DNA of 64,000 bases from the NCBI GenBank assembly GCA_028066245.1, contig JALCBR010000001.1, forward strand, positions 24,184 to 88,183. The letters run 5' to 3'. Shown piece by piece: positions 8,896 through 23,374 of this stretch. This DNA comes from Pirellulales bacterium (GTDB taxonomy: Bacteria > Planctomycetota > Planctomycetia > Pirellulales > S012-138). The notes beneath the pieces were generated by a model, which was given only the letters and a program-made list of their open reading frames with translations, had not been told where the DNA came from and searched no databases. Numbering within the stretch: position 1 is the first letter of the stretch; each line of letters starts with the position of its first letter. The translations under genes were made by a program, and so were the position numbers.

Positions 8896-9385
8896 CTCAA
8901 TTCTCCGGCGGGGCCAAGTGGTTTGATGTCCAGTAAAGCAAGCCCCATGCCCAAAGCTGCACGGCCAACGAGCGGGTTTTCGCAAGTTGTTTTATTTCAA
9001 TACCTTACGTCTCTTTGCTTTGGGTGCGACAACTGAATGAGCGCCGAGTTTCGTCACCCTCTGCTGTTGCCGATTTGCCACAAATAACCACACAAGGCGC
9101 TCTTACTAAGCGTGATGCTTCGAACAAATGAGTGGTGCTAACGCGCCCAAGGGCGAAATTGGCCCTTTCATGGTGATTTGCCGATCAATCAACAGGCCAC
9201 CCTTGGGTGTAGCGATAGCAGCCGGCTTGGTGACTCCGAAGGTGATTTCCAAACCGTGGTACGAATAGTCGCATTTTGCGAGCTGTGCGAGATTCACGCC
9301 CGTGTATGGCTCGAACTGGAAATGCCACGAAGCTTTTCAGCGGTGTGGTGGGTGTCCAGAATCTCTGATTCCTTGGGAGTGTCTT

Positions 9386-9781
9386 ATGCGATTTCTCTCC
9401 GCTCGTGTCTTGGGATTTGCATTCATCAGCGGTCTCACCGCGTGTGCCATGTTTTGGCCAGGTTCTTTATCTGGCTCGCCGCAGGGTATGCAGCAGTCTC
9501 CACCGGGCCAAAACCGGGGCAGATACAACCCCAACTATCGCGAAGGCAAGAGTGTTGAAGGCTTGCGAGGGTCGATTCGAGTGGTGCAATCCCGGTACGT
9601 GCTGTTCCCAGAAGAAGGAGCTTTTCGCTTTGTCTTATTGGAGAACCTCAACTTAGAACGTATCGCCAGGGCGATGGCGGAGACAACCGGTGACGTGCGG
9701 TGGGAGATTGACGCGGAGGTTACGGAGTTTGGCGGGGCGAGCTATCTGCTGGTACAACGTGCGCAGTTGATTGGAGGCTGA
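9386..9781 (+). CDS. small secreted hypothetical protein
   Basis: ATG at 9386 is preceded by GGGAG. Signal peptide-like segment is MRFLSARVLGFAFISGLTACA. Confidence 0.5.
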   Translation: MRFLSARVLGFAFISGLTACAMFWPGSLSGSPQGMQQSPPGQNRGRYNPNYREGKSVEGLRGSIRVVQSRYVLFPEEGAFRFVLLENLNLERIARAMAETTGDVRWEIDAEVTEFGGASYLLVQRAQLIGG

Positions 9782-9951: not shown

Positions 9952-11160
9952 ATGGCAAAGAAGAAGACCAGCCGCTCTGCTCGTTCGAATTCCCGTACGA
10001 AGGCAACGGCGGTGTCCAGCACCGCGACCGAGAACGGCGCCAAGAAAAAGCGCCCTCGCTTGACCAGCGCCGCCGACAAGAAGACACGCAAAGCGCTGGT
10101 TGGTCTGGCGGATGAAGTCGTCAAGTTCGCGGACCGCAAGCGCGAGCCCTACGTGGATGTTCCGGCTCGTTCACTTTCCAACGTCAAGTACAACAAGTCG
10201 CGCAAGATTTTGGAGATGGGCCGCAACACCAATCGGCGGCAGTTGTTCAACCTCTCCCAGGCGCGGGGGTATATGCAGACCATGCTGGTTGCTAGCGGCT
10301 GCACACAGCTACTGGATGAAGGAAAGACGACCAGCATCCGGGGTTTGTACTACCTGCTCAAACACACTATCGAAGGCGCGAAGGAAGAAACCTTCGGTGA
10401 GCAATCCGAGTGCGACCCGATCATTGAAGACATGGAAGTACTGCTGGGTTCGCTCCGGGAGGAGTTGCACCTGTATGCCCAAAAGAAAGGGGATATGGTC
10501 GGCGAGATCACGCTAGTCGACAAAGGGGATGAGATTGATTGCTCTCGCATGGGGTCAGGCGGGTATGGCATTCCGTCCATCGTTGAGCCTGAAGCCATCC
10601 GCTTCAAGAAGTGCAAAGCCAAGTTCATTTTGCATGTCGAAAAAGATACCGTCTGGCAACGGTTCAATGAGGATAAGTTCTGGCGGAAGCACAACTGCAT
10701 TCTCACTCACGGAGGAGGGCAACCCCCGCGGGGCGTCCGCCGGCTGCTGCATCGAATGCACAATGAACTGAAGCTGCCTGTCTATTGCTTGTTGGATAAC
10801 GATCCCTGGGGCTACTACATCTATTCCGTCATTAAGCAGGGTTCCATCAACTTGGCGTACGAGTCGAGGCGGATGGCCATCCCTGAAGCTCGCTATTTGG
10901 GACTCCGTAGCACGGACTTTGAACGTTGCCAACTATCGGACAGCGTGATTATCCGCCTCAACGATACCGACCGCCGCAGGGCAAAGCAGATTGCCAACTA
11001 TGATTGGTTCAAGCCCAAACGGCCCTGGCAAAAGGAGATTGCCAAGATGTTGGACAATGACTTCAAGCTGGAAGTGGAAGCTCTGATTTCCAAGGACATC
11101 AGCTACGTCTCGGAAGAGTACGTCCCCAGCCGCCTGGCCGACCGTGACTGGCTGGATTGA
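9952..11160 (+). CDS. top6A: DNA topoisomerase VI subunit A / Spo11-type protein (5Y-CAP + Toprim) with a Lys/Arg-rich N-terminal tail
   Basis: A catalytic-Tyr context (TSIRGLYYLLKH), a Toprim Glu (FILHVEKDTVWQRF) and a DxD motif (CLLDNDPWGYYIY) are present. ATG at 9952 (MAKKKTSRSARS..). Confidence 0.8.
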   Translation: MAKKKTSRSARSNSRTKATAVSSTATENGAKKKRPRLTSAADKKTRKALVGLADEVVKFADRKREPYVDVPARSLSNVKYNKSRKILEMGRNTNRRQLFNLSQARGYMQTMLVASGCTQLLDEGKTTSIRGLYYLLKHTIEGAKEETFGEQSECDPIIEDMEVLLGSLREELHLYAQKKGDMVGEITLVDKGDEIDCSRMGSGGYGIPSIVEPEAIRFKKCKAKFILHVEKDTVWQRFNEDKFWRKHNCILTHGGGQPPRGVRRLLHRMHNELKLPVYCLLDNDPWGYYIYSVIKQGSINLAYESRRMAIPEARYLGLRSTDFERCQLSDSVIIRLNDTDRRRAKQIANYDWFKPKRPWQKEIAKMLDNDFKLEVEALISKDISYVSEEYVPSRLADRDWLD

Positions 11161-11219: not shown

Positions 11220-11699
11220 TCACTGGTTGCCGGAGTCTCTTTGCTCGATCTCTCGATCACGCAAAGAATCTCGTACTTCCATTAAGATACGGCCGAGCAT
11301 ATTCTTGCCGCTGCCATCTCCGCCGTCGCCCCAATAGGAATCGTTGGCTGTATTCTCGATTAACTTCGCATCGCCGGTGTTAAGCAATAGCAACCGTAAT
11401 TCGCTGTGCTGGCTGAACTTCGCCGCTACTACGTCCCGCATCACGTTGACCTTGGCAGACTCCCAATCGCGACGCAACTTCTTCTTTCTATCCCGCCCGA
11501 GTCGCGCAGCAATCATGGGCGACTTCGCTTTGCGGATCTTCTCTTGGTGAATTGGGTCTTTGAACTTTTGAGCCTGAAAATAGTGTTCCGAAGTCGGCCA
11601 GCGTTTCCCCTGGAGCATGATTGGGAATGCAGCAAAGTTGGAGAATTCTCCGTACTCGTCACTTACGCTGTAGAAACAGATCATCTGTCGGTCCGGCAT
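11220..11699 (-). CDS. NADAR (YbiA/DUF1768) family protein
   Basis: Motifs EFSNFA, WPTSEHYFQAQKF and NDSYWGDGGDGSGKNMLGRILMEVR are present. ATG at 11699. Confidence 0.8.
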   Translation of the reverse strand: MPDRQMICFYSVSDEYGEFSNFAAFPIMLQGKRWPTSEHYFQAQKFKDPIHQEKIRKAKSPMIAARLGRDRKKKLRRDWESAKVNVMRDVVAAKFSQHSELRLLLLNTGDAKLIENTANDSYWGDGGDGSGKNMLGRILMEVRDSLRDREIEQRDSGNQ

Positions 11700-11948
11700 G
11701 GTTCGACCCTTGGGTGTCTTTCTAGCTAATGGCTCATTCAAGAGACATGCATGCTGCCGGAAGGTTCGTACGGGAAGGTAACTGTCGGCACAAACGACCT
11801 GTCCACACGCAAGCATGAATGCGAAATCCGTCGCCGCCGCGACGCTCGGTCATGGAAACATAAATCTAACGAAACTAATAGGAACTCCGCTGCAGACGTT
11901 TCTCGTGGCGTGCCTATCCGGCACTCTTTCTGTGGTGCGGAGTAAGGG

Positions 11949-12527
11949 TTATCGGCATCTCTGCCCGTTCTCCTCTAACCGCTGCAACATCCTCTCCACA
12001 ACGTCTTCCACGAAGAACAAGCTTCCGTGGCCTGGCGAGACGAAACCCTTGGCCATGGCGTGTTCGATCATGCCGACCAGTGGATTGAAGTAGCCCAGCG
12101 TGTTTAGCAGGCCGATCGGCTTGCGGTGAAAGCCGAGTTGCGACCAAGTAATGGACTCGAACAGTTCGTCCAGCGTGCCGAAGCCGCCTGGCAGGGCGAT
12201 CACAGCGTCAGCCAGGTGATCCATGATGGCTTTGCGTTCGTGCATGCCGGAGACCACATGCAATTTGGTGGCGCCAGGGTGCAGAAGTTCTTTGGTGGCC
12301 AGGCTTTGTGGGATGACGCCGATCACCTCTCCGTCGGCGGCCAGCGCCGCATCGGCCAGTTGGCCCATTAGTCCCACCTGCCCTCCGCCGAAAATCAACG
12401 TGCGACCGCTTTCCGCCAGTCTCCGGCCCAACTCCTGCGCGCTCCGGGCGTACTCCGGACAATCTCCAGCCATCGATCCGCAGAAGACACACACATTCCG
12501 CACGGCAGGTCGGTTAGCTTTCTCCAT
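11949..12527 (-). CDS. LOG family protein (cytokinin riboside 5'-monophosphate phosphoribohydrolase-like, TIGR00730-type)
   Basis: Motifs VCVFCGS, IFGGGQVGLMG and the LOG signature LPGGFGTLDELFE are present. Confidence 0.85.
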   Translation of the reverse strand: MEKANRPAVRNVCVFCGSMAGDCPEYARSAQELGRRLAESGRTLIFGGGQVGLMGQLADAALAADGEVIGVIPQSLATKELLHPGATKLHVVSGMHERKAIMDHLADAVIALPGGFGTLDELFESITWSQLGFHRKPIGLLNTLGYFNPLVGMIEHAMAKGFVSPGHGSLFFVEDVVERMLQRLEENGQRCR

Positions 12528-19897: not shown

Positions 19898-20003
19898 TTG
19901 AGTGTTTGTCAATCGTTTCCGGCGGAATGCCGGTCATCGCAGAGGCTGGGAAGCCACGGAGTAGGCAGTAATGAAAGGCGGTGGCCAAACGCAGAGGCGT
20001 CCA

Positions 20004-21422
20004 TCAGCCGACGGACCCTTCCATCTGTAATTCAATCAGACGGTTCATCTCGACCGCATACTCCATCGGAAGTTCTTTAACGAGCGGTTCGATAAAGCCA
20101 TTGACGATCATCGTGCTGGCCTCGGCCTCTGACATGCCTCGGCTCATTAGGTAAAAGAGTTGCTCTTCACCGATGCGGGAGACACTCGCTTCATGACCGA
20201 TGGTGACATCCTGCTCGGCGATTTCGATGTACGGATACGTATCGCTGCGACTCTGCGGGTCCAGGATCAACGCATCGCAGACGACATTGGATTTGGACTT
20301 ACGCGCGCCGTCTTCCACCTTCACCAGACCGCGATAGCTACTGCGTCCACCATTCTTGGAAATAGACTTGGAGATAATCTGACTCGTGGTGTTGGGAGCC
20401 GCATGCACGACTTTGGCCCCGGCATCCTGATGCTGGCCGGCAGACGAGAACGCGATCGAGAGGATCTCACCGCGAGCACCCGGTTCCATCATGTACACGG
20501 CCGGGTACTTCATCGTCAGCTTGCTTCCCAAGTTGCCATCGACCCATTCCATCGTAGCGTCTTCATAGGCCACAGCACGCTTGGTGACTAGGTTATAGAT
20601 GTTGTTGGCCCAGTTCTGGATGGTTGTATACCGGCAGCGAGCGTGCTTCTTGACGATGATCTCGACCACCGCCGAATGCAGGCTCTCCGTGGAATACATG
20701 GGGGCGGTGCAGCCTTCCACGTAATGGATCTGGGCGCCTTCATCGACCACGATCAACGTCCGTTCAAACTGGCCCATGTTTTCCGCATTGATGCGGAAAT
20801 ACGCCTGAAGCGGAAACTCAATGCTTACACCAGGTGGAACATAGATGAACGATCCACCGGACCAGACTGCGGAATTGAGCGCGGCGAATTTGTTGTCCGT
20901 GTTGGGAATGACCGTGCTGAAATACTGCCGGACCAAATCCGGATGCTCGCGGACGGCGGTATCTGTATCGGTGAAGATGACCCCCTTTTTCGCCAGGTCT
21001 TCACGGAGTGAACCGTAGACAACTTCACTTTCGTATTGAGCTTTCACGCCGGCCAGAAACTTCTTTTCGGCTTCTGGGATGCCAAGTCGGTCAAACGTTC
21101 GCTTGATGTCTTCCGGGACATCCTCCCAAGATCGGCCCTGCTGATCTGAAGGCTTGATGTAGTAGTAGATATCTTGGAAATCCAGGTCGATGGCACCGCC
21201 CCACTTGGGCATGGCCTTCTGATTGAAGATTTTCAGGCTGCTCAAGCGGTAATCGCGCATCCAGTCCGGCTCTGATTTCATGTCCGAGATCTGATGGACG
21301 ATCTGCTCATCCAAACCTTTGCGCGCCTTGAAGATATACTTCTCTTCATTGCGAAAATCGTACTTGTTGATTTCCGCAGTGCTGACGTCAAAGTTGGAAT
21401 CTGTTTTGGTGTCGGTAATCAT
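20004..21422 (-). CDS. sufB: Fe-S cluster assembly protein SufB
   Basis: Highly conserved SufB sequence is present (..[15 protein letters not shown].., ..[26 protein letters not shown]..). Confidence 0.95.
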
Positions 21423-21554
21423 GACGCCCTTCGATCTATGGTTTCGCGCGCTGTTGCGCGATTTGGATTAAGCCCGCGTTGCGCGACCTGTGTTGATTGT
21501 GTGAGCCGTTTCTACTGCTGGAAGAGCCAGCTGTGATGCCACGTTCTGTGAGGG

Positions 21555-22373
21555 TTAACCCGCCGCAGCGGCTTCAACTTTCATTTTGTCATCTTCAGCA
21601 GCGGCTTCCGGGTGTGCGGCTCGAATGCGGTCGTAGCCGTGCTGATGCAGTTCCTGAGCGAGTTCAGGGCCGCCAGTCTCGACAATCCGCCCGCCAAGGA
21701 TGACGTGCGTTTTGTCTGGAATGTTGTGTTCCAGCAGTTTGTCATGGTGGGTGATGATCAAGATGCCCATCTTCTCGCGGCCAATCTCGGCAATGCTTTG
21801 ACTGGCCAGTTTCACAGCATCCACATCGAGTCCGCTATCCGTCTCATCCAGGATCGCGAATTTGGGTTTGAGCATGGCCATCTGCAGGATTTCCGCTCGC
21901 TTCATCTCGCCGCCGGAGAATCCATCATTGACGTAACGCCGGGCGAACTCTGTATCCATCTTGAGTTGCCCCATCTTCTCGCGAAGTTCCTTGCGGAACT
22001 CTCGCATGGGGATCAAGTCTTCTCCTTCTTTGCGATCTGGGCGGCGGATGTTGGTCGCCGCGTGACGGAGAAAATCGGCCATCTTCACACCGGGGATAGC
22101 GACAGGGCGCTGAAACGCCATGAACACACCAGAGCGAGCGCGTTCATCGGCATCCTTCTCCAGAATGTCCTCGCCGTTGAGTTCGACCGAGCCGGAAGTG
22201 ATCTCGTAGCCAGGGTGGCCCATGATCGCCAGCCCCAGCGTGCTCTTGCCGGAACCGTTGGGACCCATCAAGGCGTGCGTTTCTCCGCGCACAATTTCCA
22301 AGTCCACGCCCTTGAGGATGGGCTTGTCCGCCACGTTGACGTGCAAGTTCGTGATTTTGAGCGTGTCAGTCAT
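21555..22373 (-). CDS. sufC: Fe-S cluster assembly ATPase SufC
   Basis: Walker A GPNGSGKST, signature FSGGEMKR and Walker B FAILDETDSGLD are present. ATG at 22373 (MTDTLKITNLHV). Confidence 0.95.
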   Translation of the reverse strand: MTDTLKITNLHVNVADKPILKGVDLEIVRGETHALMGPNGSGKSTLGLAIMGHPGYEITSGSVELNGEDILEKDADERARSGVFMAFQRPVAIPGVKMADFLRHAATNIRRPDRKEGEDLIPMREFRKELREKMGQLKMDTEFARRYVNDGFSGGEMKRAEILQMAMLKPKFAILDETDSGLDVDAVKLASQSIAEIGREKMGILIITHHDKLLEHNIPDKTHVILGGRIVETGGPELAQELHQHGYDRIRAAHPEAAAEDDKMKVEAAAAG

Positions 22374-22474
22374 TTCGCCAGTTCGTGAAATCATCTCGGA
22401 GCGTTCAAAAATACTTGGTGTTCGCCAAGGGTCGATCGAATGTTGAATGTGTTCTTGTTGACGAACGTTTGCTT

Positions 22475-23170
22475 CTACTTGTCAGTGACTTTTTGGTGAG
22501 CAAAGACGGGTTCGCGCTCTTCAACCGCCACGTAGCCTGAGTGGTGTGGTACGGGTAACTCGTCCACGTTTTTGGCTCCCTTGCGGAGGCCGGTTGCAGT
22601 GCCCTTGCGACGGGTGATGCGTTGCCCTTTGATCTTGTCTTGGACTCGCATCAAACCTTCCAGCAGCGCTTCCGGGCGTGGTGGGCATCCGGGCACATAC
22701 ACGTCAACCGGAACTACCAAATCCACACCTTTGCACACGTGGTAACCCCACTTGAAGTACGGTCCACCGCCCACCGTGCAGGCGCCCATGGCAATCACAA
22801 ACTTGGGATCGGGCATTTGGTCATAGAGCCGCTGCACGCGACTGGCCATCTTGTAGGTCACTGTTCCAGCGACGATCATCAAGTCACTTTGACGCGGAGT
22901 TGCGCGAAATGCGCCGGCGCCAAAACGGTCGATGTCGTAACGGCTTGCACCGGCGGCCATCATCTCAATCGCGCAGCACGCCAAGCCGAAGGTCATCGGC
23001 CAAATGCTAGACTGCCGAGCCCAATTAATCGCCTCTTCAATCGTGGTTGTGATGACGTTCTCTTCCAGCCGTCCTTCCACCCACGGTCGCTGAAAGTACG
23101 AATTGGCGCTGCCATCGCCGGGGACCGTTACGGGGCCAGCCGAGGTCATCGCTGTTTGGTGAGCGTCCAT
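22475..23170 (-). CDS. nuoB: NADH:quinone oxidoreductase subunit B (NuoB/Nqo6-type, 20-kDa subunit) homolog, orphan
   Basis: All N2-cluster Cys motifs are present: [23 protein letters not shown] and VPGCPPRPE. No nuoA or nuoC flanks it. ATG at 23170. Confidence 0.85.
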
Positions 23171-23374
23171 GAGTGATATTCCACTTTGATTGCAGGTGTG
23201 ATGTGGCCTGTCGACCCATGGCGGAAACCGCCACAAGGCCGAGAACCTCACATCGTCCGCTGCCGCAACGGGCTCGTCAACCTGCGAAAACCGCTGCCAA
23301 ACTCGTTTCTTGCCTTTCGTGAGACGCGTAGCCGGTTCTCACGGCCAAACGCCAGTTGTATGCCTCAATGTTCA

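Follow-up and report, generated by a model that had tools for sequence, protein, structure and literature searches.

A topoisomerase VI A-subunit gene and its unlinked B-subunit partner in a Pirellulales planctomycete

A gene of the topoisomerase VI-A/Spo11 type (top6A) was encountered without a B-subunit gene (top6B) beside it, which raised the question of whether it encodes one half of a split topoisomerase VI (Topo VI) or a DNA-breaking enzyme that acts alone or with a different partner. The gene was examined in a window of 64 kb (the whole stretch of DNA that was analyzed, G000:C8:24184-88183), in the metagenome-assembled genome to which this window belongs, and in related genomes. Overall, the gene very probably encodes the A subunit of a canonical A2B2 type IIB Topo VI in a planctomycete of the order Pirellulales (Thermoguttaceae-like); the gene for the partner subunit is placed on another contig, the pair having been split from an ancestral B-A arrangement, and the enzyme would serve as a substitute for topoisomerase IV (Topo IV).

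The top6A gene and its product

The top6A open reading frame was identified on the + strand of the window, from an ATG at 9952 to a stop codon ending at 11160. The longest frame opens at an alternative start, GTG 9844; ATG 9952 was preferred as the start because 121 close homologs begin with residues of the 'MAKKK...' type. The features assigned to the gene were as follows:

9952..11160, + strand: top6A coding sequence, DNA-cleaving A subunit of topoisomerase VI (402 aa plus stop; supported by Pfam, NCBIfam and 2zbk_A)
9952..10083, + strand: N-terminal basic low-complexity tail, aa 1-44 (14 K/R, 2 D/E)
10066..10269, + strand: N-terminal region, aa 39-106 (aligned with the N-terminal segment of S. 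shibatae and M. mazei Top6A)
10270..10473, + strand: 5Y-CAP / winged-helix domain, aa 107-174, with Y134 in RGLYY (Pfam PF04406, TP6A_N)
10489..10614, + strand: all-beta linker domain of Topo VI-A (Topo_VI_alpha), aa 180-221 (Pfam PF20768, E = 8.9e-09)
10624..11136, + strand: Toprim domain (TOP6A-Spo11_Toprim), aa 225-395 (Pfam PF21180, E = 5.5e-59)

The catalytic hallmarks of Top6A/Spo11 that the earlier note had read from the sequence were all present, with RGLYY at aa 130, VEKD at aa 229 and DNDPWG at aa 282, and all could be aligned to the structure of S. shibatae Top6A (2zbk_A). The codon for Y134 (10351-10353) was found to align with the second Tyr of 'LYY' (chain residue 106 of 2zbk_A), which we take to be the catalytic one, while the VEKD motif and the DxD motif, including E230 (codon 10639-10641), D282 (codon 10795-10797) and D284 (codon 10801-10803), lined up with the VEKD and DADP of the same chain. 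Similarity to 2zbk_A extended over aa 39-401 of the query (E = 5.7e-78), and the alignments from aa 39 onward started at chain residue 7 of 2zbk_A and chain residue 9 of 2q2e_A. The archaeal segment that matches aa 39-106 is presumably the one that touches the Top6B transducer in the solved archaeal holoenzymes. Among the profile searches, PF04406 was matched at 55.3 bits, PF21180 at 199.4 bits over its full profile (1-170), and the NCBIfam equivalog NF003333 at 549.1 bits (cut-off 465), with aa 39-402 falling on profile positions 5-367 of 367. The features that mark a member of the Top6A family were present, namely a 5Y-CAP domain with its Tyr, a Toprim domain with its Glu and DxD, and an equivalog score over the cut-off. 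A second Top6A or Mini-A-like paralog was not detected in the genome, in which a single PF21180 match was recorded at E ≤ 1.

The gene already has a Topo VI-A annotation in public databases. The public names of planctomycete Top6A proteins were found to differ, with 'DNA topoisomerase VI subunit A' used by JGI and 'DNA topoisomerase IV subunit A' used by NCBI. The latter stems from the description of NF003333, though the proteins are Topo VI-A, and it may distort automated surveys of where Topo IV occurs. It was also observed that Top6A homologs of 770-950 aa (P0130, P0133, P0131, P0135, P0140, P0145, P0146, P0150, P0152, P0156 and P0167) align to the query in two stretches, with the break positioned near the DxD motif (query aa ~280-286). 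Pfam analysis of P0130 and P0133 revealed an Intein_splicing domain plus a LAGLIDADG homing endonuclease inside the Toprim domain of these two proteins; an intein is absent from the Top6A of the window.

The partner gene and gene arrangement across Pirellulales

A genome-wide search for Top6B had been proposed in the earlier note, and when the whole genome was searched with the transducer (Topo-VIb) model one place was matched, G000:C7:45323-46024. This match sits in a 722-aa open reading frame (G000:C7:44114-46282) that is a canonical top6B. The protein was found to carry the Pfam domains HATPase_c and Topo-VIb_trans and to have GHKL, H2TH-like and transducer regions, and scored 683.7 bits with NF003218 (the NCBIfam Topo VI-B equivalog; cut-off 274) and 504 bits with TIGR01052. 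Its alignment to M. mazei Top6B (2q2e_B, E = 7.3e-138) displayed the N-box, G1 and G2 regions of the GHKL domain as well as the transducer 'SESK' lysine. Further examination of the protein revealed: (i) an N-terminal tail of ~85 aa, which is low-complexity and S/T/K/R-rich; (ii) an insertion of ~70 aa (aa ~460-529) that splits the transducer, such that the 2q2e_B alignment breaks between residues 459 and 530 and the Pfam transducer match falls in two stretches; and (iii) an alignment to 2q2e_B that stops at chain residue 493 of 621, with the C-terminal region of the M. mazei protein unmatched. Bacterial Top6B proteins have been described as being without the M. mazei C-terminal Ig-like domain (Allen & Maxwell 2024, PMC11302465).

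One copy each of top6A and top6B is present in the assembly, and the two genes are not adjacent (A on C8, B on C7); adjacency is usual in this family and does not define it. The claim that Top6B is lacking from the 64 kb was borne out by the transducer search, which gave no match on contig C8, the contig that carries the window. The designation of the gene as an 'orphan' thus stands in the sense that top6A and top6B are not neighbors and fails in the functional sense, as a canonical top6B is found on C7, the same finding that upholds the reading of the locus as a split Topo VI.

Gene arrangement was subsequently compared across the order. Top6A was present in single copy in 39 of the 41 genomes (68-87% identity) and Top6B in 40 of the 41, with A and B together spanning 63-87% identity. 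In most relatives, top6B was located directly upstream of top6A on the same strand, as in genome G017 where both are encoded on the minus strand (B, 21163-23208; A, 19954-21075). Within the family of the query, genera g7 and g8 mostly keep the adjacent pair; by comparison, the group of genera with split genes, which includes the genus of the query itself, has A and B on different contigs or ~55 kb apart on one contig (g1, g2 and g4-g6; the latter arrangement in G006 and G009). The top6B gene was not found in the g3 genome, which is 71% complete. Other lineages of the order were also found to have split the pair, with A and B ~714 kb apart in the single-contig genome G031. When 80 further species loci around Top6A were inspected, a top6B gene upstream, on the same strand and within 4 kb, was detected in 47; among the remaining 33, at least 2.5 kb of upstream sequence was available in 19. 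Because A and B are unlinked in ~29% of these 66 informative planctomycete species loci, gene adjacency is an unsafe criterion for calling a Top6A 'orphan'. Ancestrally, the order had top6B and top6A as a pair, with B directly upstream, and their separation arose later and is common; a rearrangement parted the two genes in this genus and in the genera nearest to it.

The genes flanking top6A in the window were examined as well, since the earlier note had reported a small upstream gene and a convergent NADAR gene as its neighbors and had proposed that conservation of the neighborhood be checked. Both neighbors were confirmed: a 159-aa open reading frame encoding a putative secreted protein, with no Pfam match, lies upstream (9302-9781), and the convergent NADAR gene lies downstream, together with a LOG/SLOG gene (within 11220-12527). 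The secreted-protein, NADAR and LOG flanks were missing beside top6A in the locus of a genome of the same genus (G001), while the genes just upstream of top6B were common to G001, G004 and G009. Because its flanks are unshared even within the genus, the neighbors of top6A were judged to be incidental and not partners. It was also noted that top6A adjoins a variable region. Upstream of the separated top6A, a scan for the sigma-70 consensus, which is a weak tool for planctomycetes, identified no promoter, and terminator-like sites were at background level; both results are uninformative for this phylum.

Several loci with unusual reading frames were encountered during this comparison. At G007:C1:1073997-1077923, an adjacent top6B-top6A pair was observed to be broken into several frames, with up to seven in-frame TGA codons. 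This genome is 8.5 Mb in 6 contigs and is scored as only 66% 'complete', and the broken frames are probably long-read frameshift errors rather than pseudogenes or recoding. Toprim matches in open frames of 925-1473 aa prompted consideration of natural Top6B-Top6A fusions in Planctomycetota, a candidate that was rejected. Of four such long-frame loci that were checked, three displayed similarity to Top6A in the last ~350-400 aa only, and the fourth (G157) matched neither A nor B in its long frames; one of the four has a separate top6B frame of 719 aa. The long-frame genomes appear to be stop-poor, with unrelated frames of 680-1074 aa open on both strands, and the 925-1473 aa frames are most likely spurious stop-free stretches and not fusions.

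Phylogenetic placement and comparison with known systems

The placement of the protein among Top6A and Spo11 sequences, another analysis that had been proposed for this gene, was determined after a search of 1.84 billion cluster representatives, which returned 244 matches at E ≤ 1e-30. A maximum-likelihood tree was constructed from 52 sequences, including the query, five close homologs and 46 near-full-length representatives. The query was positioned in a 15-member clade with Pirellulales sequences (SH-aLRT 97). The nearest named sequences outside of this clade were DPANN archaeal Top6A (Woesearchaeota and Ca. Rehaiarchaeum/Parvarchaeota), and the clade holding a sequence named 'meiotic recombination protein SPO11' was in the other half of the tree; these clade labels are sparse, as 3 of the 10 representatives that were looked up bore an organism or gene name (two DPANN Top6A and one SPO11). 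Archaeal Top6A sequences surround the Pirellulales Top6A clade, which adjoins DPANN and is far from Spo11. This tree agrees with a published placement in which one cluster of bacterial Top6A adjoins archaea of the DPANN and Euryarchaeota (Allen & Maxwell 2024, PMC11302465), and bacterial Topo VI has been viewed as a lateral acquisition from Archaea (Forterre & Gadelle 2009, PMC2647321). The query thus falls inside the ordinary Topo VI-A of Pirellulales, with which its NCBIfam equivalog score concurs. The earlier note had stated that a canonical top6B elsewhere in the genome, together with a place in ordinary bacterial Topo VI-A, would make the gene routine; both were found, and the gene is therefore considered routine. 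The set of gyrase and Topo VI without Topo IV in Pirellulales has already been published (PMC11302465).

The closest known systems are the Topo VI enzymes of Thermogutta terrifontis, Pirellula staleyi and Lacipirellula parvula (PMC11302465), which are of the same order, have two subunits and occur with gyrase in the absence of Topo IV. The insertion in the Top6B transducer identified here lies where an alpha-helical bundle specific to Pirellulales has been described in P. staleyi (PMC11302465). Compared with most of the Pirellulales, in which top6A and top6B are adjacent, the genes are unlinked here, and otherwise nothing substantive differs. The archaeal Topo VI of S. shibatae (2ZBK) and M. 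mazei (2Q2E) has the same domain order in A, the same Tyr, Glu and DxD residues, and the same GHKL, H2TH-like and transducer regions in B; the system described here differs in its bacterial host and in its extra tails (~44 aa in A and ~85 aa in B) and transducer insertion of ~70 aa in B. Eukaryotic Spo11 is of the same 5Y-CAP plus Toprim fold family and shares the catalytic residues; however, the query is in the half of the tree with the named archaeal Top6A, and its partner is a canonical, ATPase-competent Top6B and not a degenerate Top6B-like protein.

Topo VIII fuses B-like and A-like parts in one polypeptide. The query has its 5Y-CAP plus Toprim cleavage module in common with Mini-A and Topo VIII (PMC7671362). 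A few Planctomycetes are reported to carry Topo VIII, which is borne on plasmids or integrated elements, while Mini-A is shorter, comprises 5Y-CAP and Toprim only, is notably unlike Topo VI-A, and is without a B part (Takahashi et al. 2019, PMC7671362). In contrast to both, the protein examined here is a Topo VI-A equivalog of full length whose B partner has its own chromosomal gene, and it is single-copy and vertically conserved in 39 of the 41 genomes. Assignment to the Topo VIII or Mini-A group was rejected, the A and B genes being separate and A being full-length.

Cellular role, alternative explanations and N-terminal tails

The complement of type II topoisomerases was examined for what it may reveal of the role of this enzyme. 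The genome was found to have exactly one gene of the GyrA/ParC family (C149) and one of the GyrB/ParE family (C66), and a lone GyrA-family gene was likewise recorded in each of the good-quality genomes of the order. The order has gyrase and Topo VI and no Topo IV. Because only this single GyrA/GyrB pair is present, with no ParC/ParE, Topo VI is the likely decatenase in place of Topo IV. Judging from the absence of Topo IV, it most likely performs the job of that enzyme, i.e., decatenating daughter chromosomes and relaxing positive supercoils. In operation, Top6B would dimerize on ATP and trap the T-segment, while Y134 on each Top6A protomer would cut the G-segment to leave 2-nt overhangs, with Mg2+ presumably held by E230, D282 and D284; the T-segment would then pass through and the break would be resealed. 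This sequence of strand passage is the standard mechanism of type IIB topoisomerases. The A2B2 assembly, the enzymatic activity and the decatenase role are predictions from sequence. Pirellulaceae, Lacipirellulaceae and Thermoguttaceae are listed among 17 bacterial families that have both Topo VI subunits and gyrase, and for the families outside of Pseudomonadota and Terrabacteria, which are without Topo IV, it has been argued that Topo VI is a specialized decatenase (Allen & Maxwell 2024, PMC11302465). Topo VI appears to be a core and probably essential enzyme of the Pirellulales, and this large bacterial order is therefore a reasonable system for asking what bacterial Topo VI does.

Other explanations of the locus were weighed against this assignment to a canonical, split Topo VI. 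One of the readings offered in the earlier note was a stand-alone DNA-breaking enzyme with a different partner. Such an enzyme, whether Spo11-like, Mini-A-like or defence-nuclease-like, would act alone or with another protein in place of Top6B, and could be suggested by the absence of Top6B from the 64-kb window, the unrelated neighboring genes and the extra basic N-terminal tail of Top6A. This reading is highly improbable and went unsupported in our analysis, as the genome itself encodes a full canonical Top6B, essentially all genomes of the order have both A and B (adjacent in most), the protein exceeds the curated Topo VI-A equivalog cut-off, and its N-terminal part keeps the segment that corresponds by alignment to the region of archaeal Top6A in contact with B; furthermore, the flanks of top6A are not conserved within the genus, and therefore no alternative partner is co-inherited with it. 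The co-residence of A and B in one genome depends on binning, and the genome is metagenome-assembled, in 186 contigs with an estimated contamination of 0.96%, with A and B on different contigs; the top6B contig C7 might in principle have been drawn from another organism, leaving a genome truly without B. Such mis-binning is hardly credible because the GC content of the C7 stretch and of the window is the same (0.563), A and B diverge in parallel from a common set of relatives (identities correlated at r = 0.69), and G001, a genome of the same genus, carries an A gene and a B gene whose identity to the copies in this genome is 87% in either case. Moreover, with Top6B found in 40 of 41 relatives its absence would be an anomaly, and only one copy of each gene is present in the assembly.

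A further alternative accepts a genuine A2B2 Topo VI and assigns it a specialized or accessory role, with decatenation performed by gyrase as in some bacteria without Topo IV. This would be in keeping with reports that Topo VI and Topo IV occur together in some bacteria and that the bacterial role of Topo VI is unresolved (Allen & Maxwell 2024, PMC11302465), and with the finding that only about half of the good Planctomycetota genomes (67 of 141) carry Top6A, including none of the eight in one family of the same class. We consider an accessory role to be unlikely, since Topo VI is near-universal and single-copy in the order and highly conserved (68-87% identity), the pattern that an essential core gene would show, and no second type IIA enzyme is found in the order; in addition, archaeal Topo VI is reported to be a preferential decatenase in vitro (PMC8837201). 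Replacement of Topo IV by Topo VI is thus the preferred reading.

The N-terminal tails of the two subunits were examined last. The earlier note had described a Lys/Arg/Ser-rich tail of roughly 60 aa on Top6A; the basic part proved to be shorter, at ~44 aa, since residues 39-100 align to the N-terminal region of archaeal Top6A. K and R account for 32% of aa 1-44, and this tail, which is typical of the lineage, is without a counterpart in the archaeal structures. In the 121 homologs, the tail was found to range from 0 to 68 aa (mostly 11-47, median 25) with a median net charge of +7, and charge was the only conserved property. The possibility that the tail is a distinct conserved domain was ruled out, as it is low-complexity, variable in length and conserved in charge alone. 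Basic N-terminal tails are not discussed by Allen & Maxwell (2024, PMC11302465). It is conceivable, and in our estimate rather improbable, that the basic and disordered tails of Top6A and of many Top6B proteins, together with the Pirellulales transducer insertion, adapt Topo VI to planctomycete chromosome biology, and that the repeated uncoupling of top6A and top6B reflects independent regulation of the subunits; the support for this adaptation extends as far as the conserved basic character of the tails. Extra tethering to DNA or the nucleoid, or a link to the division machinery, might be among the roles of the tails and insertion.

The N-terminal extensions of Top6B were compared in 18 relatives in which they could be read, and ranged from strongly basic to mixed or acidic, ending in a conserved 'RRRATAQSMAA' motif. 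The character of the Top6B tail was seen to differ widely among species. In the cultured Adhaeretor mobilis (NZ_CP036263.1; L064), the tail has 31 K/R in 82 aa with runs of KKKKKK, and at another locus (L046) it is composed of tandem 'RRKKATxxAAGG' repeats.
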